A DNA stretch of 61,918 bases from a candidate division Zixibacteria bacterium SM1_73 (lineage in GTDB: Bacteria > Zixibacteria > MSB-5A5 > SM1-73): NCBI GenBank assembly GCA_001304225.1, contig LJVD01000004.1, positions 1 to 61,918 on the forward strand, read 5' to 3'. This document shows, one piece after another, positions 4,868 through 59,122 of the stretch. The notes under the pieces are model-generated. The model did no database searches. It was not told the origin of the DNA and saw only the letters and a list, made by a program, of their open reading frames with translations. Position numbers and translations under genes: made by a program. Numbering within the stretch: the stretch's first letter is position 1; every line of letters begins with the position of its first letter.

Positions 4868-5704
4868 ATGAAAGTTTTTGTGGTTAAGAAGGCGGGTTTT
4901 TGCTTCGGAGTAAAAAGAGCCATCAAGCTTGCCTTCGACTGTGCCAAGAGGAAAAACGAAAAAGTTTTTACCTGGGGACCTTTGATTCATAATCCCCAAG
5001 TGGTGGAGAACTTAAAGAAAAAAGGCGTTTGTGCCGTAGAGGATTTAAGAAAAATCAAAAAAGGAACTTTGATCATTCGTTCGCACGGCATACATCCGAA
5101 GATATTGGAGAGGATAAAAAAGAGAAAAATCGAGGTGGTGGATGCCACCTGCCCTTTTGTGAAGAGGGCTCAGAAGAAAGCGAGGCTTCTTTCCCATCAG
5201 GGCTATCAGGTAGCGGTGGTAGGAGAGGCGGATCATCCGGAGGTTCAGGGAATCATGGGATATGTTAACGGCTCAGCGCTGGTGATAAACCAAAATCGGA
5301 GCAAACGGAACCTTCCTCATTTTGAGAGATTGGGAGTGATCGCTCAAACCACCTTAAGCCTTGATGCCTTCAAACAAACGATTGGGGAGCTGCTTGAGAA
5401 GGCGGATGAGTTAAAGGTGTGCAACACCATATGTCATGCCACTGCCCGTGCTCAGAGGGCCACTTTAAAGCTGGCCAGCAAGGTGGATATGATGATCGTG
5501 GTGGGAGGACACAATTCAGCCAACACCAATCGCTTGGCAAAATTGTGCAAAGGACTGAGAACTCCCACTCATCATATTGAGACGGCAAAAGAATTGCGAA
5601 GGAATTGGTTTAAAGGCAAAACCAGCGTGGGAGTGACTGCCGGCACCTCTACTCCGGACTGGCTTATCCAAGAGGTGGTGGAGAGTATAAGAAAATGCAA
5701 TTGA
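4868..5704 (+). CDS. ispH: 4-hydroxy-3-methylbut-2-enyl diphosphate reductase
   Basis: N-terminal AGFCFGVKRAI and the conserved cysteines and histidines of the LytB family. Confidence 0.9.
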   Translation: MKVFVVKKAGFCFGVKRAIKLAFDCAKRKNEKVFTWGPLIHNPQVVENLKKKGVCAVEDLRKIKKGTLIIRSHGIHPKILERIKKRKIEVVDATCPFVKRAQKKARLLSHQGYQVAVVGEADHPEVQGIMGYVNGSALVINQNRSKRNLPHFERLGVIAQTTLSLDAFKQTIGELLEKADELKVCNTICHATARAQRATLKLASKVDMMIVVGGHNSANTNRLAKLCKGLRTPTHHIETAKELRRNWFKGKTSVGVTAGTSTPDWLIQEVVESIRKCN

Positions 5705-8281: not shown

Positions 8282-8455
8282 TATTTTACTACAAATGCAA
8301 AAGATTTTTTAATGGTTAACTTGATTGCCCCTCATCTTTTCCTTTAGGGAAGGGGTATGTAAGCTTATTTCTTGCTATTGTACTTAGGTGATCTCAAATA
8401 GCAGAGCTTTGAAGCCAGCCATCTTGTCGATATCGAGACTGGTGAGGTCAATCTA

Positions 8456-14559: not shown

Positions 14560-15582
14560 CTAAGGGTAACTTCTACCTTTAATTCTTGCGCTTTCAAGTT
14601 GCCAAGATTCCCACACCTTTGGGCCCTCCGATTTCACCAATCCGACATCTTCAGCATACCATTGATGACTCGTGCCATTATATTTTTCCATGTTTCCTAT
14701 CCATCCAGAAGCGAAGGTTTTGAATTTAAGACAACCTTGAAAAGTCCCGGCCGGAACGGTGACATTCTCGACTCCTTCAAGAATTGAAATCCAGGTATAG
14801 ATGCCGGAAATTCCATCTTCATCATAACATGTGTCCGCATTCACTACCGAGTTACCGGGTTTCATGTTCGGCTCAGCGATGATAATAGGTTCATGATCCT
14901 TTAAATCGTCCTGCCGAGAGGGAAACCAAACGTCAGTATGCCAGTGCCACCTTAACCCTAAGCTATCATTGGAGAAACCATCATCTGTATAACGATCCAC
15001 AAAATCCCCACCTGATCCAAGGAAACGCGAACGTCGATTAAAAATCATGCTCCCGTCTGGAGAGACAGAAATCGCTGTACCCGTCCGTGCCTTTAACCGG
15101 CCAGTATGAGGATTTTGAACCCAATTCCAACTGCCGTTGCCATCTAAATCCGTAAAAAACTCCCCTTCATCATATTGCCCGTTGGGAGGATCATATTCAC
15201 CATTGCCATTTCTATCCTCATACGGGACCCCCGGCGTCCAAGGATCATTTGGTCCATCGTATTTACCATTTTGATTCAGGTCCATTGTAGCATCAAAGAA
15301 ATCTCCCTCATCGTAGATTCCGTTTTTGTTCATATCGATAAAAGGCTCTCCCAAATTAATATCTCCATCTACAAAAGGTTCTCGAATGCCATACCATAGA
15401 ACAGCTACCTCCCAGATCCACTCATCTCCCTCATTCAAAGGGAAATAGTCCTTCATAAGATATACCGTAGGTTGAGCAGGACCGGTAGTCTTCTTGGTAC
15501 TGCAGCTGCTGACTAAACAGAACAGGATTAAAATCGAAGCCCAAAGTATCTTTTCTCGAAATAACCTCTTCGTTTCTATCAC
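14560..15582 (-). CDS. lipoprotein with thrombospondin-type-3-like Ca-binding repeats
   Basis: Lipobox LVSSC. Repeated DxNxNGxYDxxD units (DMNKNGIYDEGD, DLNQNGKYDGPND, DRNGNGEYDPPN, DLDGNGSWN). Confidence 0.55.
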   Translation of the reverse strand: MIETKRLFREKILWASILILFCLVSSCSTKKTTGPAQPTVYLMKDYFPLNEGDEWIWEVAVLWYGIREPFVDGDINLGEPFIDMNKNGIYDEGDFFDATMDLNQNGKYDGPNDPWTPGVPYEDRNGNGEYDPPNGQYDEGEFFTDLDGNGSWNWVQNPHTGRLKARTGTAISVSPDGSMIFNRRSRFLGSGGDFVDRYTDDGFSNDSLGLRWHWHTDVWFPSRQDDLKDHEPIIIAEPNMKPGNSVVNADTCYDEDGISGIYTWISILEGVENVTVPAGTFQGCLKFKTFASGWIGNMEKYNGTSHQWYAEDVGLVKSEGPKVWESWQLESARIKGRSYP

Positions 15583-50973: not shown

Positions 50974-51003
50974 GGTCAAGGGTGAGACACCCTTGACCAA
51001 CAA
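50974..51003 (+). repeat. REP-like hairpin, family H (left flank of accessory island)
   Basis: ggtcaagggtgagacacccttgaccaacaa. The reverse complement of 58645-58675 differs by a single 1-nt indel. Confidence 0.75.
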
Positions 51004-51119
51004 GCCATTTCTTTCGTCAGGTACAAGACCCGTAGCCATCTCATATTGCCTGTAGCCACGAAACTCCGGGTGCGATGCTTTTTCTGTGTGTTAAAGAAAC
51101 AGTCGAGTAAACTCGACCA

Positions 51120-53849: not shown

Positions 53850-53878
53850 AATATACTGCACATCTGTGCAGATGTCAA
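53850..53878 (-). promoter_or_regulatory. sigma70-like promoter with LexA-box-like palindrome (helicase gene)
   Basis: The minus strand reads TTGACA (53878-53873), 17 nt, then TATATT (53855-53850). The spacer is the perfect palindrome CTGCACA-GA-TGTGCAG. 36 of 39 nt are identical to the lexA-operon promoter. Confidence 0.55.
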
Positions 53879-53942: not shown

Positions 53943-54314
53943 TCACTTAATGATGAATTTCTTCAACCTCTTTTCGTCAACTTGAGTATCGATCAATTTG
54001 ATCAGATCTCGCGTCAGCTTTTTGTGATCTTTGTGTCCTCTCTTTACTGGCGTAATAAAAAGTACGGTGACAACTCTTTTATCGTGGTCTGTTTTTATGA
54101 ATATCCTATGCCCTGTTCGTCCTCCCACCCAAAGTTTCTTTACCTTTCCGGCGAGATCCGGCGGTAGGAATTTTCGCGGGGTTCCAGCATTTGGCGGATC
54201 ACTGGCTATTACCTGAAGTTGCGTGTCAACCTGACGTTTTAAAAACGAGTTTTCCTGCATATGTTTATATTGGTATTTAAAGATTTCGTGCCAGGCTATT
54301 TTATAAGAAGTCAA
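53943..54314 (-). CDS. RelE/ParE-superfamily-like toxin
   Basis: 123 aa with KKLWVGGRTGHRIFIKTDHDKRVVTVLFITPVKRGH, resembling the RelE/ParE core beta strands. It sits 17 nt after the Panacea-like gene. Confidence 0.5.
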   Translation of the reverse strand: MTSYKIAWHEIFKYQYKHMQENSFLKRQVDTQLQVIASDPPNAGTPRKFLPPDLAGKVKKLWVGGRTGHRIFIKTDHDKRVVTVLFITPVKRGHKDHKKLTRDLIKLIDTQVDEKRLKKFIIK

Positions 54315-54331
54315 TCCCCCTCCTCGCCACT

Positions 54332-54886
54332 CTAAACACGTCTCATGGCGCTTATAAAATCAGGGTCAAGGCCAAGCTCCAAATCTTCGCAATCATCATC
54401 TGATAAGTCGACAGGAATCCTTGGTGGCAGCTTTTCCTCAAAAATGTCTATTCCCTTTGCCACCGCCTCCAAATATTCTGGGTCGGAATGTGCCTTTTTG
54501 AGCAATTCTTCCTCTGGAAGATAACCGTATGTCTCTACCGATTTATTGATTTTTTCTTTCAGTTTGGCGTGAGTATGAGACATAGCCAGACTGTAGAATC
54601 TCATACTCTTTTTGTCTGTTAGAGAGTACTTATTCCCCTGGCCACTCTCAAGCGGGGTCGCCTTAGTATGATTCATGGACAATAGCTGTTCGTTAATAGT
54701 ATCTAAATCACCGCTGTGCGGACCATATAGATCGCATTTAAATCCAAATGGTTTTAGGCTGGCGTTTTTTAGGCCAAAATAGGCAACTTTGTTCAGCCTA
54801 AGCAGTCCGTAAACTCCATCCTTGAAGCGTCCAATGGTATACAAAAGGACCAATCTTTTGAAGGTATCTTTAGATATAGTACCCAT
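54332..54886 (-). CDS. Panacea (DUF4065)-like antitoxin candidate
   Basis: LLRLNKVAYFGL...FKCDLYGPHSGDLDTINEQL resembles the KLxKLLYxA...YGPV signature. Acidic C-terminal tail. Confidence 0.5.
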   Translation of the reverse strand: MGTISKDTFKRLVLLYTIGRFKDGVYGLLRLNKVAYFGLKNASLKPFGFKCDLYGPHSGDLDTINEQLLSMNHTKATPLESGQGNKYSLTDKKSMRFYSLAMSHTHAKLKEKINKSVETYGYLPEEELLKKAHSDPEYLEAVAKGIDIFEEKLPPRIPVDLSDDDCEDLELGLDPDFISAMRRV

Positions 54887-55307
54887 TTCGTTTACCTCCG
54901 TTTTGAAGCCTTTTCGACTTCATTCCACACAATTCAGAAAAATCTCGGTTTTTGATTGCTTTTTCTATTTTTTTGCACATATACCAGGTGGTTTTGTAAG
55001 GGAGCTCCAAATCTCTGCTTATTTGATTTATCGTCGCTTTCTTGGTTGAACAAATGAGATACAAAGCTATGAACCATTTGGTTAATGGAATGTAAGTTTT
55101 GTGAAAAATAGTTCCGGCGGTAACGGAGAATTGATACCTGCAATGGGAACATTCAAATTTTTTAACCGTTTCAATCCTTGTGATTTTCCTTCCACCGCAT
55201 CTCGGACAAAGAACACCATTTGGCCAACGTACCTTCTCAAGATACTTCTCGCATTCCTGTTCGGTTGCTAACCTGTTTATTATTTCTAACAACCTCATAA
55301 GAATCAT
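54870..55307 (-). CDS. stand-alone IS1595-type transposase zinc-ribbon domain protein (no DDE domain)
   Basis: CEKYLEKVRWPNGVLCPRCGG...FECSHCRYQFSVTAGTIFHKTYIPLTKWF. It overlaps the next gene by 17 nt. Confidence 0.65.
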   Translation of the reverse strand: MILMRLLEIINRLATEQECEKYLEKVRWPNGVLCPRCGGRKITRIETVKKFECSHCRYQFSVTAGTIFHKTYIPLTKWFIALYLICSTKKATINQISRDLELPYKTTWYMCKKIEKAIKNRDFSELCGMKSKRLQNGGKRNGYYI

Positions 55308-55317
55308 GTCCTATATT

Positions 55318-55346
55318 ACTATACGGCATTTATTTGCTTCTGTCAA
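55318..55346 (-). promoter_or_regulatory. sigma70-like promoter of the Zn-ribbon/PanA/RelE operon (near-leaderless)
   Basis: The minus strand reads TTGACA (55346-55341), 17 nt, then TATAGT (55323-55318). The ATG at 55307 lies 10 nt downstream of the -10 hexamer. Confidence 0.45.
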
Positions 55347-55665
55347 GTAATATTTTTGCTTGTTGCACATTTCATCGTCTGTGTGTCTTATTATTTAACT
55401 TCAACAATGATAAGCGGTTAAGTTTACATCTTGCTTCCGTGACGTTATAATATCAGAGGTCATTCTTCAGCCTGCTTTACTTCCAGCCCAACTGATTGTC
55501 GGATACACGCTTGCCTAGCTTTATGCCAGTGCGTTTTTCTCGCCCCTAACGTGCAACCCTCATCTAAATAGGCGACATATCACTTTCACCACAACTTTGA
55601 TGGTGATGGAGATAAGTCTTGAGTTTTTGAGAGGCTTGAAACCATTTTTTAGGTAGAGGATAGAT

Positions 55666-57033
55666 ATGACTTCCTTTTTAAGAGATTTCTGGAAAAGGCT
55701 TTTTGCTCGCCGGAGATCGGTTCTTCCAATTAAAAGCGCGAATCAAAATGAATTTAATGTTATGATTGGTCAAAGTCTTGGAGGCATCAAGTCAAAGAAG
55801 TTTAACTTCTCCGCAGGCTCTGTGGGAAAAGAATTTCCCACCTCGCCGGTCTCTAAAAGAACCTCATATTTGGGTCAAGGAGGACTTCTACTACCTCAGT
55901 CCAGCTTATATGATAGTTCTTTTCGCATCAGGCTTTACCGTTTCCTGAGGGATAATATCCCGGTTTTGAACTCTGCGATCTGGACCTGGACTCGCATCTG
56001 TGCCTCACCCAGCTATTTTGAATTGAAAGGATCAGAGGAGCCCAAACTTTTGGATAATGCATTTGAGGTGCTCAAGAATTTGGATCGACGCATTTATCAA
56101 CACAGCTTCCAGAAGTTCGGTGGAGCCGATGCGCTTTTGACCCAATTTTTTGGCTCGCTTTTCACCGATGGTGCAGTGTGTGGAGAGTTAGTTTTAACCG
56201 CGTCCAGAGATAAATTGGACAAGTTCTATTTCATCGATCCTGCCACCATCAGATTTAAGCTGAAAGATGATACCAATTGGGAGCTTTACCAGGAAGTGGA
56301 TGGGGTAGAAGTTAAGCTTAATCCAGCCTCCATTTTCTATCTGGGTTTAGACCCGGATCCGGACGATCCCAGGGGGAAAAGCATTTTGAGCTCCATTCCT
56401 TTCGTGGCGAGGGTGGAACAGAGGCTTTTGGAGGATATGCAAAAGACCATGCACAATGCGGGTTACCATCGCTTGCACGTGAAGATAAAGCCACCGGAAA
56501 GGTGCTCCGGCGAATCGGATGAGACTTATATTTCGAGGGCAAATAAGTATTTCGAAGATACGGTTGAGATGATGAAAGAGCTGGCTCCGGAGGATAATCC
56601 CATCACCTGGGACGATATCGGAATCGAATACATCGGTCCCTCCGGACACGTTGCATCCTCCAATTATTGGTATATTAACCACAAAGCCTTGGTGGAGGAC
56701 ATCTGTGCGGGAGTGCATCTGGACCCATTTATGTTGGGCTATTCTTACGGACCTACCAGAAGCTGGGCACAGTTTAAATATGAACTGATGTTAAGAAACG
56801 TCATCTCCATACAGGGCTTAGCTAAAAGATTTATGGAGTGGATCAGAAACATCGAACTGGCTCTGTGGAGAATACCTTTGGAATGTGTTCATCATTTTGA
56901 TAATCGGAAGTTCTTCGGGATGCTGGAGCAAAGAGAAGCAGAGAAGATTCATCTGGAAAATGTCATTCGAAAAAAAGAGTCGGGATTTATCTCAGAGGAG
57001 CAGGCGAAGAGGGAGATAGAAAGTATCCAGTAG
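55666..57033 (+). CDS. putative phage portal protein
   Basis: 455 aa. Size, adjacency to the large terminase, and portal-like segments (IPVLNSAIWTWTR, PRGKSILSSIPFVARVEQRLLEDM). Confidence 0.5.
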   Translation: MTSFLRDFWKRLFARRRSVLPIKSANQNEFNVMIGQSLGGIKSKKFNFSAGSVGKEFPTSPVSKRTSYLGQGGLLLPQSSLYDSSFRIRLYRFLRDNIPVLNSAIWTWTRICASPSYFELKGSEEPKLLDNAFEVLKNLDRRIYQHSFQKFGGADALLTQFFGSLFTDGAVCGELVLTASRDKLDKFYFIDPATIRFKLKDDTNWELYQEVDGVEVKLNPASIFYLGLDPDPDDPRGKSILSSIPFVARVEQRLLEDMQKTMHNAGYHRLHVKIKPPERCSGESDETYISRANKYFEDTVEMMKELAPEDNPITWDDIGIEYIGPSGHVASSNYWYINHKALVEDICAGVHLDPFMLGYSYGPTRSWAQFKYELMLRNVISIQGLAKRFMEWIRNIELALWRIPLECVHHFDNRKFFGMLEQREAEKIHLENVIRKKESGFISEEQAKREIESIQ

Positions 57034-57066
57034 GCAGTACTCAGTAGGCAGACTTCAAACCTGAGA

Positions 57067-57126
57067 TGTAGGGGCGAACCTTCGGGTTCGCCCAAATGTG
57101 GGTGGAGCTGAAGCTCCACCCCTACA
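57067..57126. repeat. nested REP hairpin between portal and terminase
   Basis: tgtagggg[cgaacc-ttcg-ggttcg]cccaaatgtg[ggtggagc-tgaa-gctccacc]cctaca. Confidence 0.7.
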
Positions 57127-57187
57127 TTTTAGCTTTTCGTTACCGTTAAGCGAGCTTCTAATTACGATGGGTTAAAGGGATGATGAT

Positions 57188-58540
57188 TTGCGAAAATCAC
57201 ATGGTTCGACCAAGAAAAAGAAATTTTGGCGAAAAGCAATTTCAGATCCAGTTTTATTTGCCAAAGAATTTTTGGAGATCGAACCGCATCCGGGACAGAT
57301 AAAGTGGCTTTCTGATTCTACCAAACCTGAAAATGCCCTCCATACCGGGAATCGTTGGGGGAAAAGCTTAGTTCAAGCCATCAAAATCCTTCACCGCTGT
57401 ATTTTCAAAATCAGAAATCTTAAATACGATAATGCCGATAAATACGAAGCGGTCAACGCCTCCATCACCCAGGATCAGGCAAAGATTATTTTCAGCAACG
57501 TTATCAGATTGATTAAAGGGAAGCCACTTTTCGAGATTCTGGTGAAAGACGTAAAGTTTACCCCCTTTCCCCATATTATCCTTAGAAACGGTGCTGTCTT
57601 TTGGGCACGGTCGACTCAGAGAAGAGGAGAGTATCTTCTGGGGCACGATTATGACTATTTCAACTTCGATGAGGTAGCATTTGAGCCGCATCCCGAATAT
57701 GTGGTTAATCAGGTTATTATGATGAGACTGGCAGACAGGGCTGGAATGCTGGACTATACCTCCACACCCAAAGGCAAAAACTGGTTTTACCGAAAATGCG
57801 GTGAGCTTCAAAGAAATCCTAAAATCGGTTATGTCCAAAACGGAGATTCCCGTGAAAATCCACATATAAGCCAGGAATATTTGGAGAGAAAATTGAAGAC
57901 TCTATCTCCCAGCAAGATTGAACAAAACATAAAAGGACTATTTATCGACGATGCTTGCCAAATGATAAAAGAGGAATATATCCGAAATGCCATGACTGCC
58001 TCCACTGGTTTATCCAAACCAGCTCCAGGACACCGATACTGTCATGGTTGGGATTTAGCCCGAAAAAGAACTTTTACCGTGGGCATCACCCTGGATATAA
58101 CCCAAAAACCTTATCAAGTTGTGGCTTTTGAGAGGTTTCAAAGAGAGTGGAAGGACGTGTATTCTGCGATCAGAAGAAGGCATAAGGAATATGGCGGAGA
58201 GGTGATAATCGACTCCACCGGATTAGGGGACGTAGTGTTGGCGGAGCTGTCGGACATTAAACCTCAAGGTTTCAATTTCGGAGAAAGGGGAGGAAAAGCA
58301 AAATCTGAGCTTATTGCCAATTTGGAACAAATGCACGCCTTGGGCAATATCGCCTATCCATATGTGGAGCAGATTGAAGAGGATGGGGAATTATGGACTT
58401 TGCAGGATGAGCTGCGAAATTTTTACTGGGACAAGAATCAGGAATGCGATGCAGTGATGGCATTAGCGTTGGCTTTGTGGCTGGTAAGAGAAGGAGAAAA
58501 ATCGCCGTTGATTTTGTTGCCAAGGGTAGAAAAGATTTAA
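57188..58540 (+). CDS. phage terminase large subunit
   Basis: Walker A-like HTGNRWGKS, Walker B YDYFNFDEVAF, and nuclease-domain acidic motifs CHGWDLARK and IIDSTGLGD. TTG start. Confidence 0.7.
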   Translation: MRKSHGSTKKKKFWRKAISDPVLFAKEFLEIEPHPGQIKWLSDSTKPENALHTGNRWGKSLVQAIKILHRCIFKIRNLKYDNADKYEAVNASITQDQAKIIFSNVIRLIKGKPLFEILVKDVKFTPFPHIILRNGAVFWARSTQRRGEYLLGHDYDYFNFDEVAFEPHPEYVVNQVIMMRLADRAGMLDYTSTPKGKNWFYRKCGELQRNPKIGYVQNGDSRENPHISQEYLERKLKTLSPSKIEQNIKGLFIDDACQMIKEEYIRNAMTASTGLSKPAPGHRYCHGWDLARKRTFTVGITLDITQKPYQVVAFERFQREWKDVYSAIRRRHKEYGGEVIIDSTGLGDVVLAELSDIKPQGFNFGERGGKAKSELIANLEQMHALGNIAYPYVEQIEEDGELWTLQDELRNFYWDKNQECDAVMALALALWLVREGEKSPLILLPRVEKI

Positions 58541-58573
58541 AGAACAAGTCAACGGATGGAGCGGATGAAGGGA

Positions 58574-58630
58574 TTGATGTAGCGGAAGGCTTTAGTTTTC
58601 CACTGTGGAAACCTAAAGGTTTCCTCTACA
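58574..58630 (+). repeat. double-hairpin repeat, family D
   Basis: ggaaggctttagttttccactgtggaaacctaaaggtttcctctacat. Confidence 0.75.
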
Positions 58631-58644
58631 TTCTATCTTCTTGG

Positions 58645-58675
58645 TTGTTGGTCAAGGGTGTCCTCACCCTTGACC
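58645..58675 (-). repeat. REP-like hairpin, family H (right flank of accessory island)
   Basis: ttgttggtcaagggtgtcctcacccttgacc. Confidence 0.75.
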
Positions 58676-58828
58676 GTTTATTTGAGCGGGGTGGGGGCAC
58701 CCCGCTCGAACGAGGGAAAAACGTGACGTCTGAGCTCGTCTCGGACGAAAAAACGTCGCACACTGAGTTGCAAGGCTGCACAATATAACGTAATAACTTA
58801 AAGTTGGGTCTTGTACCCGACGAGAGAG

Positions 58829-59122
58829 TTATTTCAGCAGAAGCATCTTCTTTGTTTCGGTGAGATCTCCTGCTTTTAATTGATAGAGATAGATTCCGCT
58901 GGCGACCTCTCTTCCCCGATCATCTTTCCCATCCCAGATAACTTCATGGCTACCCCCTGTTTTCGGTCCGTCTACCAAAGTCCTCACTTCCTGCCCCAGA
59001 ATATTGTGGATTTTCAGGGTGATGTGGATGGGTGTCTGCCTACTGCCGACTGCATACTGAATTTTGGTGGTGGGGTTGAATGGGTTGGGATAGTTCTGGT
59101 TCAAAGAGAAGGCTCGGATCAC
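58829..59122 (-). pseudogene. T9SS (Por) C-terminal sorting domain, detached by a frameshift from the upstream YVTN gene
   Basis: FSLNQNYPNPFNPTTKIQY...IWDGKDDRGREVASGIYLYQLKAG...KKMLLLK. The frame is open from 59143. The GTG at 59122 overlaps the upstream TGA (GTGA). Confidence 0.7.

Follow-up and report, generated by a model that had tools for sequence, protein, structure and literature searches.

Phage packaging genes that stand apart from any virion module raise the question of whether they are what is left of a prophage or part of something that the host has kept. We address this question for a 61,918-nucleotide stretch of DNA from the candidate division Zixibacteria bacterium SM1_73 (contig LJVD01000004.1 of assembly GCA_001304225.1; hereafter the window), which carries towards its 3' end a gene for a phage portal protein followed by a gene for the large terminase subunit (TerL). 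These two genes belong to a cluster of head, packaging and accessory genes, ~14 kb as a whole set, that continues on an adjoining contig and recurs throughout the phylum (Table 1). Comparison of the sequences indicates that the cluster is very probably a domesticated, vertically inherited particle system owned by its Zixibacteria host. We propose that the best overall explanation is an ancient domesticated phage cluster that would work like a gene transfer agent (GTA), a reading to which we assign a probability of roughly 0.58; as for function taken on its own, our analysis leans modestly towards GTA-like transfer of DNA.

The initial annotation of the window identified the 455-aa product as a portal and the 450-aa product as TerL, and both identifications stand. 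Three portal PHROGs match the former, for which a Pfam scan gave no match, and the latter is recognized by phrog_2, by Terminase_6N and by its motifs. Alignment of 17 Zixibacteria homologues shows that the TerL Walker A (TGNRWGKS), Walker B (FDE) and STP coupling motifs are invariant, as are the acidic residues D289, D342, D348 and D421 of its RNase-H-like nuclease, the motif names having been assigned by reading the sequence. Neither open reading frame (ORF) is interrupted, and an ORF check agrees that both genes are full-length; as had been argued, this counts against simple decay. The pair is also confirmed to diverge from a block formerly described as Zn-ribbon, toxin–antitoxin and helicase genes (here the Zn-ribbon, 184-aa, 123-aa and helicase genes), and the host surface-protein genes said to follow TerL are represented by a YVTN beta-propeller gene on the minus strand.

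What did not hold is the description of the pair as a two-gene orphan with neither protease nor capsid gene in the flanking 10 kb. Only 3.4 kb is visible 3' of TerL before the contig ends at 61918, and the final 94 nt of the window's contig (C8) are identical to the 94 nt with which contig C96 begins in reverse complement. Gene order over this join is collinear with that in a same-genus genome, G002, where all of it lies on a single contig (G002:C21), and the join is crossed by an unbroken 142-aa ORF, homologues of which occur in G002, G024 and G029. Together, the overlap, the collinearity and the read-through ORF lead us to conclude that C8 continues directly into reverse-complemented C96, so that a joined coordinate equals 61824 plus the position in reverse-complemented C96. 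A tblastn search of the relatives' genes against the window's own genome (G000) placed all remaining cluster genes on C96; once the contigs are joined, the distance from TerL is 4.3 kb to the start of the prohead-protease gene and 8.2 kb to that of the major capsid gene. The orphan appearance thus results from the contig end and from a genus-specific insertion of ~4.3 kb between TerL and the protease gene, a gap that is nil in G035 (where the genes abut), ~1.5 kb in G003 and 7.9 kb in G002, which holds two beta-propeller genes there. Past the last cluster gene, gF7, C96 continues with a host TonB-dependent receptor gene. A merely truncated contig, named in the initial annotation as one outcome that would speak against it, thus applies in part, but no complete prophage lies past the contig end.

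Conservation, selection and inheritance across Zixibacteria

The initial annotation had suggested looking for the same two-gene remnant elsewhere in the lineage; the relatives carry the full set instead, phylum-wide. From family to class level, portal and TerL genes are always adjacent and in most genomes are followed by a conserved run of genes. The portal is single-copy in 37 of 41 relatives, with identities of 83% in the genus, ~80% in the family, ~65% in the order and 39–57% in the class. Among 201 Zixibacteria genomes, 190 encode the capsid protein (171 of the 179 high-quality genomes; 103 of 108 genera) at 62–89% identity and 190 encode a single-copy TerL; both are present in 182, and three genomes have neither. 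The gene set is single-copy in ~95% of these genomes, and almost every listed match is free of internal stop codons.

The core genes of the cluster are under strong purifying selection. Ratios of nonsynonymous to synonymous substitution rates (dN/dS) between G000 and G002 are 0.05–0.13 for most cluster genes (portal 0.08, TerL 0.05), with gF7 at 0.16 and gF9 at 0.28, and a second pair, G101 and G093, gives 0.03–0.15; the values were computed by NG86 at dS of 0.4–1.7, which is usable though nearing saturation. Relaxed selection, another outcome named beforehand as speaking against the initial annotation, was not seen (core dN/dS ~0.05–0.1). In a concatenated portal and TerL tree, and likewise in one of capsid, g3 and g8, all host families come out as single clades; the number of label changes is the smallest possible, a value that none of 200 shuffles reached (0/200 as low), and the same deeper groupings appear in both. 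Vertical inheritance and purifying selection, as expected of a GTA, are therefore both found.

The locus is likewise that of a resident. The canonical cluster is flanked by a TPR protein gene on one side and by M14 peptidase, lipoyl synthase and HD-GYP genes on the other. No PF00589 tyrosine integrase lies within 50 kb in any of ten genomes, the screen being one for tyrosine recombinases and not for serine recombinases or DDE transposases; distances to the closest tyrosine recombinase in these ten run from 54 kb to >450 kb, and none is present on C8 or C96. The scanned cluster genes and their immediate flanks hold no replication or regulation module. What is present is a set of structural and packaging genes between host flanks, and the absence of integration, replication and lysogeny modules is as in GTAs, serine recombinases again being outside the screen. 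GC content, overall and at third codon positions (GC3), is within ~1 standard deviation of the genome mean for most cluster genes, with g6 higher.

In several genomes the cluster is split, with ORFs intact: in G023 the portal and capsid genes lie 110 kb apart, and G205, G057, G066 and G201 have TerL at 411, 102, 60 and 34 kb, respectively, from the capsid gene. Counting the splits of 34–411 kb and the 4.3-kb insertion in the present genome, the genes sit at several loci. We consider that a self-packaging virus could not tolerate such splitting, which is typical of gene transfer agents.

These data bear directly on two rival explanations. A decaying or recently deleted prophage of which two genes are left would account for the lack of any other virion gene inside the window. 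It is refuted by the remaining genes, all intact, on the overlapping adjoining contig, by dN/dS of ~0.05–0.1 in the core, by single-copy retention in ~95% of the phylum and by the lack of a tyrosine integrase within 50 kb in the ten genomes screened; the features that would mark a prophage (integrase with attachment sites, patchy distribution, pseudogenes) were not found, and we regard this explanation as having next to no chance of being right. A satellite-like mobile element of the capsid-forming phage-inducible chromosomal island (PICI) type, or an active temperate phage co-diverging with its hosts, gains some support from the make-up of the set, with head and packaging genes and few or no tail genes as in capsid-forming satellites, and from head-module relatives in real viral contigs. 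It is nonetheless very improbable: the chromosomal site is fixed, the trees track the hosts, no tyrosine integrase lies within 50 kb in the ten genomes screened, and the scanned cluster genes and immediate flanks hold no replication or regulation module. Moreover, an element whose packaging and head halves are separated, in some genomes by as much as 411 kb, would be unable to package itself. None of the hallmarks of a capsid-forming satellite (mobile island, integrase, replication, helper interference, horizontal spread) was found. Among the alternatives first offered, a satellite or a recent deletion therefore fails on locus, trees and dN/dS, and a domesticated packaging module, which fits conservation, selection and trees, was right in spirit, the real object being a whole capsid system.

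Gene content and a possible particle

The major capsid protein matches the major-head-protein family phrog_3922 (E 3e-61). Together with the portal, the prohead protease and a TerL that has both ATPase and nuclease motifs, it makes up an HK97-type tailed-phage head and packaging module. The protease is encoded by a protease–ligase gene, of which just the N-terminal ~200 residues are universal. In ~65 viral contigs, as well as in the faecal phage MT835508, a homologue of this domain is encoded between portal and capsid protein. Its AlphaFold model (pLDDT 83) has an entry named 'Prohead serine protease' as best BFVD match (E 1.3e-11, TM 0.69), followed by dozens of COG3740 head-maturation proteases, and herpesvirus assemblins weakly top its PDB list. 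On the basis of these structural matches we assign the domain as a prohead protease, with the invariant His82 and Ser135 as its likely catalytic pair. Pfam returned nothing for the 17 protease domains scanned.

The C-terminal part of this protein in G000, G002, G003 and G024 is an ATP-dependent DNA ligase (PF01068, E 7e-28) in which we read the nucleotidyl-transferase motifs KYDG, DGEIV and EGxMIK; the end past the ligase weakly matches the LigD 3'-phosphoesterase. In other Zixibacteria families the ligase part is diverged or absent. A literature search judged by titles and abstracts found no description of a prohead protease–DNA ligase fusion. Three IMG/VR contigs (L075, L077 and L078) encode a prohead protease with a ligase-like C-terminal region that matches the ligase part of the Zixibacteria protein at E 1e-60 to 1e-79; the gene adjoins g10-like, g6-like and capsid genes. 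Its occurrence in these viral contigs implies that the fusion probably predates domestication.

The remaining genes are less readily named. The acidic, helical g10 appears scaffold-like; g6 (140 aa, highly conserved, strand-rich, just 5' of the capsid gene, with a 'virion structural protein' PHROG match) appears decoration-like; g5 has one membrane helix and a coiled coil; gF7, small with a hydrophobic N-terminus, appears holin-like; and gF9, which like gF4 is a small protein and has a very basic N-terminus, is a candidate small terminase because it lies between portal and TerL in three genomes. For these five, sequence features and gene position were the only guides. Pfam and PHROGs gave nothing for g5, g10, gF4, gF9, the 460-aa protein or gF7, and profile searches against PDB sequences gave nothing for g6 or the protease domain and only weak sialidase matches for g3. 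The AlphaFold model of g3 (pLDDT 91.5) combines a beta-propeller with a beta-sandwich. Sugar-binding lectins of Photorhabdus and sialidases (E ~1e-11) are the structural matches of the propeller, as is one chain from the portal–tail complex of phage LME-1, and the alignment contains an Asp-box motif. The g8 product has immunoglobulin (Ig)-like repeats common to phage tail proteins. Both gF2 and the 460-aa protein encoded before it differ between genomes in length and N-terminal region, like receptor-binding proteins, and we describe them as fibre-like. The lectin- or sialidase-like propeller, the Ig-repeat protein and the variable fibre-like proteins are features that would bear, indirectly, on delivery of DNA to recipient cells.

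We envisage that a host signal would lead to expression of both cluster halves, perhaps coupled by the element found upstream of each. A procapsid would then be assembled on the portal from capsid protein, with the protease and the scaffold, and TerL would pump cellular DNA into it by headful. Neck, propeller and fibre proteins would finish a short-tailed or tail-less particle that, released by lysis, would bind surface glycans of related cells. A more elaborate version, which we consider improbable, is that the particle is a GTA carrying its own DNA end-joining enzymes into the recipient with the donor DNA. In that case the protease fusion would draw the ligase and the LigD-type 3'-phosphoesterase into the procapsid, where they would be cut free, to be ejected with the packaged DNA and to seal donor DNA into, or repair, the recipient chromosome; the variable C-terminal domains of other Zixibacteria families would then be alternative delivered payloads.

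The chief competitor of a GTA-like particle is a domesticated particle with a job other than transfer, such as a host-controlled, DNA-filled capsid that serves biofilm matrix or the release of DNA, a particle that kills or acts as a decoy, or a defence that diverts packaging by incoming phages. The conservation and selection data fit such a particle equally, no obvious tail or DNA-injection machinery was found, and PBSX and similar GTA-like elements package DNA without delivering it (PMC12946183). Against it, a full packaging motor with an apparently intact nuclease, a modelled glycan-binding propeller and variable fibre-like proteins would suit a particle that adsorbs and carries DNA, and no PADLOC defence model matches portal or TerL. 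On balance we judge a non-transfer role less likely than GTA-like transfer, but a serious alternative and the most credible of those considered.

Several observations weigh against a GTA-like system. Tail tube, sheath, tape-measure protein, endolysin and a recognisable small terminase were not found, and proteins with putative holin, scaffold, decoration and small-terminase-like roles were assigned from sequence features and position. The system is known from its genes, and Zixibacteria are uncultured. Codon usage of the cluster is a little less host-like than in randomly drawn sets of host genes, with r at 0.906 where the 5th percentile of those sets is 0.922, and the ~50-nt element found upstream of the portal gene is not exclusive to the cluster. 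Finally, the system is dispensable: G037 and G061 are without portal, TerL and capsid protein, and the closed genome G073 (locus L053) lacks portal and TerL and has g3 split in two, with the capsid gene retained. These three natural loss-of-system lineages offer a useful comparison.

Noncoding elements and neighbouring genes

The REP (repetitive extragenic palindromic) hairpin reported between portal and TerL is indeed present as a compound, REP-like structure with a strong fold, and its stem B has four occurrences in the genome. An Rfam scan of 55300-58900 returned nothing meaningful, with no family at threshold for the spacer hairpin.

Table 1. Features of the portal–terminase region and of the cluster genes on the adjoining contig. 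C8 is the window's contig; C96 positions are in the coordinates of C96 itself, not of its reverse complement.
Feature	Contig	Position	Strand	Remarks
Upstream element, ~50 nt	C8	55584-55634	+	TTTCACCACAACTTTGATGGTGATGGAGATAAG...GAGAGG, also given as CCACAACTTTnATGGTGAnnGnGATAnG ... GAGAGG; 30-80 nt 5' of portal start codon
Portal protein gene, 455 aa	C8	55666-57033	+	phrog_3753, E 2e-33, plus two other portal PHROGs
GGCAGTA-type short tandem repeats	C8	57030-57053	+	GTAGGCAGTACTCAGTAGGCAGAC; overlap portal stop codon, upstream of TerL
Compound REP-like hairpin in portal–TerL spacer	C8	57061-57133	not assigned	RNAfold -57.4 kcal/mol for whole 154-nt spacer
TerL gene, 450 aa, TTG start	C8	57188-58540	+	phrog_2, E 8e-35; Pfam Terminase_6N (PF03237), E 8.5e-6
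Lineage-specific insertion TerL–protease (~4.3 kb), window part	C8	58541-61918	not assigned	YVTN beta-propeller surface-protein gene and small minus-strand ORFs
YVTN beta-propeller surface-protein gene	C8	59119-61257	minus	Pfam and NCBIfam beta-propeller matches
Exact overlap with reverse complement of C96, 94 nt	C8	61825-61918	not assigned	suffix–prefix match, first 94 nt of reverse-complemented C96
Protease–ligase	C96	14624-12345	minus	
g5	C96	12282-11899	minus	
g10	C96	11816-11397	minus	
g6	C96	11258-10836	minus	
Major capsid protein	C96	10744-9635	minus	
g3	C96	9515-8091	minus	
g8	C96	8033-7164	minus	
gF4	C96	7146-6724	minus	
gF9	C96	6579-6235	minus	
460-aa protein	C96	6150-4768	minus	
gF2	C96	4771-3554	minus	
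gF7	C96	3462-3121	minus	

The ~50-nt element upstream of the portal gene is kept in family relatives, and a look-alike is found ~90 nt before the protease–ligase gene on C96 (~14680-14730, minus); similar portal/protease pairs of the element occur in G003, G024, G104 and G036. A strict pattern finds just these two places, the portal and protease leaders, in the 2.2-Mb genome, and looser searches add two copies with no long ORF behind them, on C43 (~5230-5290, minus) and C127 (~8290-8350, plus). Genomes of the family hold 1–15 copies of its 18-nt core, against 0–1 for a reversed control. The extra copies, two in this genome and up to 15 in relatives, rule out an exclusive site for a dedicated regulator. 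The cis-element shared by both cluster halves is best read, from its distribution, as a wider regulon signal or a dispersed repeat and not as a private switch. A tiny ORF (MVMEISLEFLRGLKPFFR*) at 55600-55656 overlaps this conserved element just before the portal gene, and G002 has a similar one; its 'FLR' motif resembles the portal N-terminus (MTSFLRDF...), and it may be a leader peptide or the relic of an older start.

SOS control of the cluster was considered and rejected, because the LexA box of the lineage (TGCNC-N4-GTGCA, as at 53857 and 37726) is missing before either operon, upstream of the portal and protease genes, in at least 26 genomes, where the search gave only scattered one-mismatch matches.

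A second repeated motif, CAGTRGGCAGA, is found in four genomes of the order (G000, G002, G016 and G024) ahead of TerL, of the protease gene or of both, and 10 of its 12 matches in 709 kb of loci fall within TerL or protease spacers. An inverted copy lies at 59034-59062, and the C96 copy lies 33 nt before the protease–ligase start. These GGCAGTA-type repeats may be a binding site for a protein or RNA, or a recombination scar of the insertion.

Divergently beside the portal gene, on the minus strand at 53943-55307, is a three-gene cassette encoding an IS1595-type Zn-ribbon domain, a 184-aa protein with a weak DarG-like match and a 123-aa protein. The same cassette sits between portal and TerL in G034 (L020 7184-8629). 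Its two positions mark it as a small mobile cassette that came to lie next to the portal gene twice. The stretch from helicase to TerL is bracketed by inverted repeats of 18–22 nt at 50986-51031 and 58645-58827 (100% and 91% complementary). Since relatives have the enclosed genes as conserved chromosomal genes, these repeats resemble copies of REP-type hairpins more than termini of a mobile island.

Phage relatives and known systems

About 80 IMG/VR contigs and the faecal phage MT835508.1 have only a portal–protease–(g6)–capsid module in common with Zixibacteria, the order of portal, protease and capsid genes being common to ~65 viral contigs. In sequence comparison, the Zixibacteria genes form a tight, slowly evolving group inside this broad family of uncultured tailed phages. 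The homologous modules agree in gene order, but capsid identity to the phages is 27–40%, compared with at least 62% within Zixibacteria; the phage module sits in viral genomes of 30–74 kb, and g3, g8 and later genes are not shared. The exceptions are contigs L074 and L081, which look like fragments of the Zixibacteria element or of a close relative.

No paper that connects Zixibacteria with gene transfer agents came up in full-text literature searches, and the GTA-like, phylum-wide capsid system looks undescribed in the searchable literature. If our reading is correct, the capture of a phage head by a whole clade would be a recurrent evolutionary outcome, with an independent domestication in an uncultured phylum of sediment and groundwater bacteria, and would provide a second deep system in which to ask why hosts retain such particles. 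Its genes would also serve as a marker set with which virome studies could assign 'bacterial DNA in capsids' to a producer, and the protease–cargo fusions suggest natural enzyme loading into capsids. For annotation, 'orphan' portal/terminase pairs or head-gene blocks in metagenome-assembled genomes of Zixibacteria should be read as parts of one host-owned system, not as prophage debris.

Among known systems, capsid-forming PICIs resemble the Zixibacteria cluster in having head and packaging genes without a full tail module, but they are mobile and patchy and carry integrase, replication and helper-sensing genes, none of which was seen in the cluster. GTA particles package random pieces of the producer genome that hold too little to encode the element (PMC11841831), and the lineages known to have GTAs are very few, most of them in the Alphaproteobacteria (PMC11841831, PMC12946183). 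FpGTA, a podovirus-like GTA-like element of Faecalibacterium, is also outside the Alphaproteobacteria, near-ubiquitous in its host genus and short-tailed, with operons of ~10 kb. The likeness drawn is one of description; FpGTA has been shown directly to package discrete 8–9 kb host fragments (PMC12946183), whereas the Zixibacteria system is known from genes alone and is conserved over a whole phylum.

A close parallel is offered by the RcGTA-type agents of Alphaproteobacteria such as Rhodobacter capsulatus and Caulobacter (Rhodogtaviriformidae), from which the Zixibacteria set nevertheless appears to differ in origin. RcGTA head genes, which we take to belong to the Pfam families Phage_portal, Peptidase_S78 and Phage_capsid, find no counterpart here, as Pfam scans gave no match for the Zixibacteria portal, capsid protein or protease domain; this points to an independent origin, and homologous membership of the RcGTA family was not found, as judged via Pfam families and not via RcGTA sequences. 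The Zixibacteria set has no tail tube or tape-measure genes, its portal gene precedes TerL, and its protease is fused to a variable C-terminal domain, a DNA ligase in the present lineage; and its host is an uncultured phylum of the FCB group. In overall design, by contrast, the two agree: each is a phage-derived cluster of ~14–15 kb with TerL, portal, prohead protease and HK97-type capsid protein, devoid of integration or replication genes, able to be spread over more than one locus and inherited vertically over a large host clade under purifying selection.

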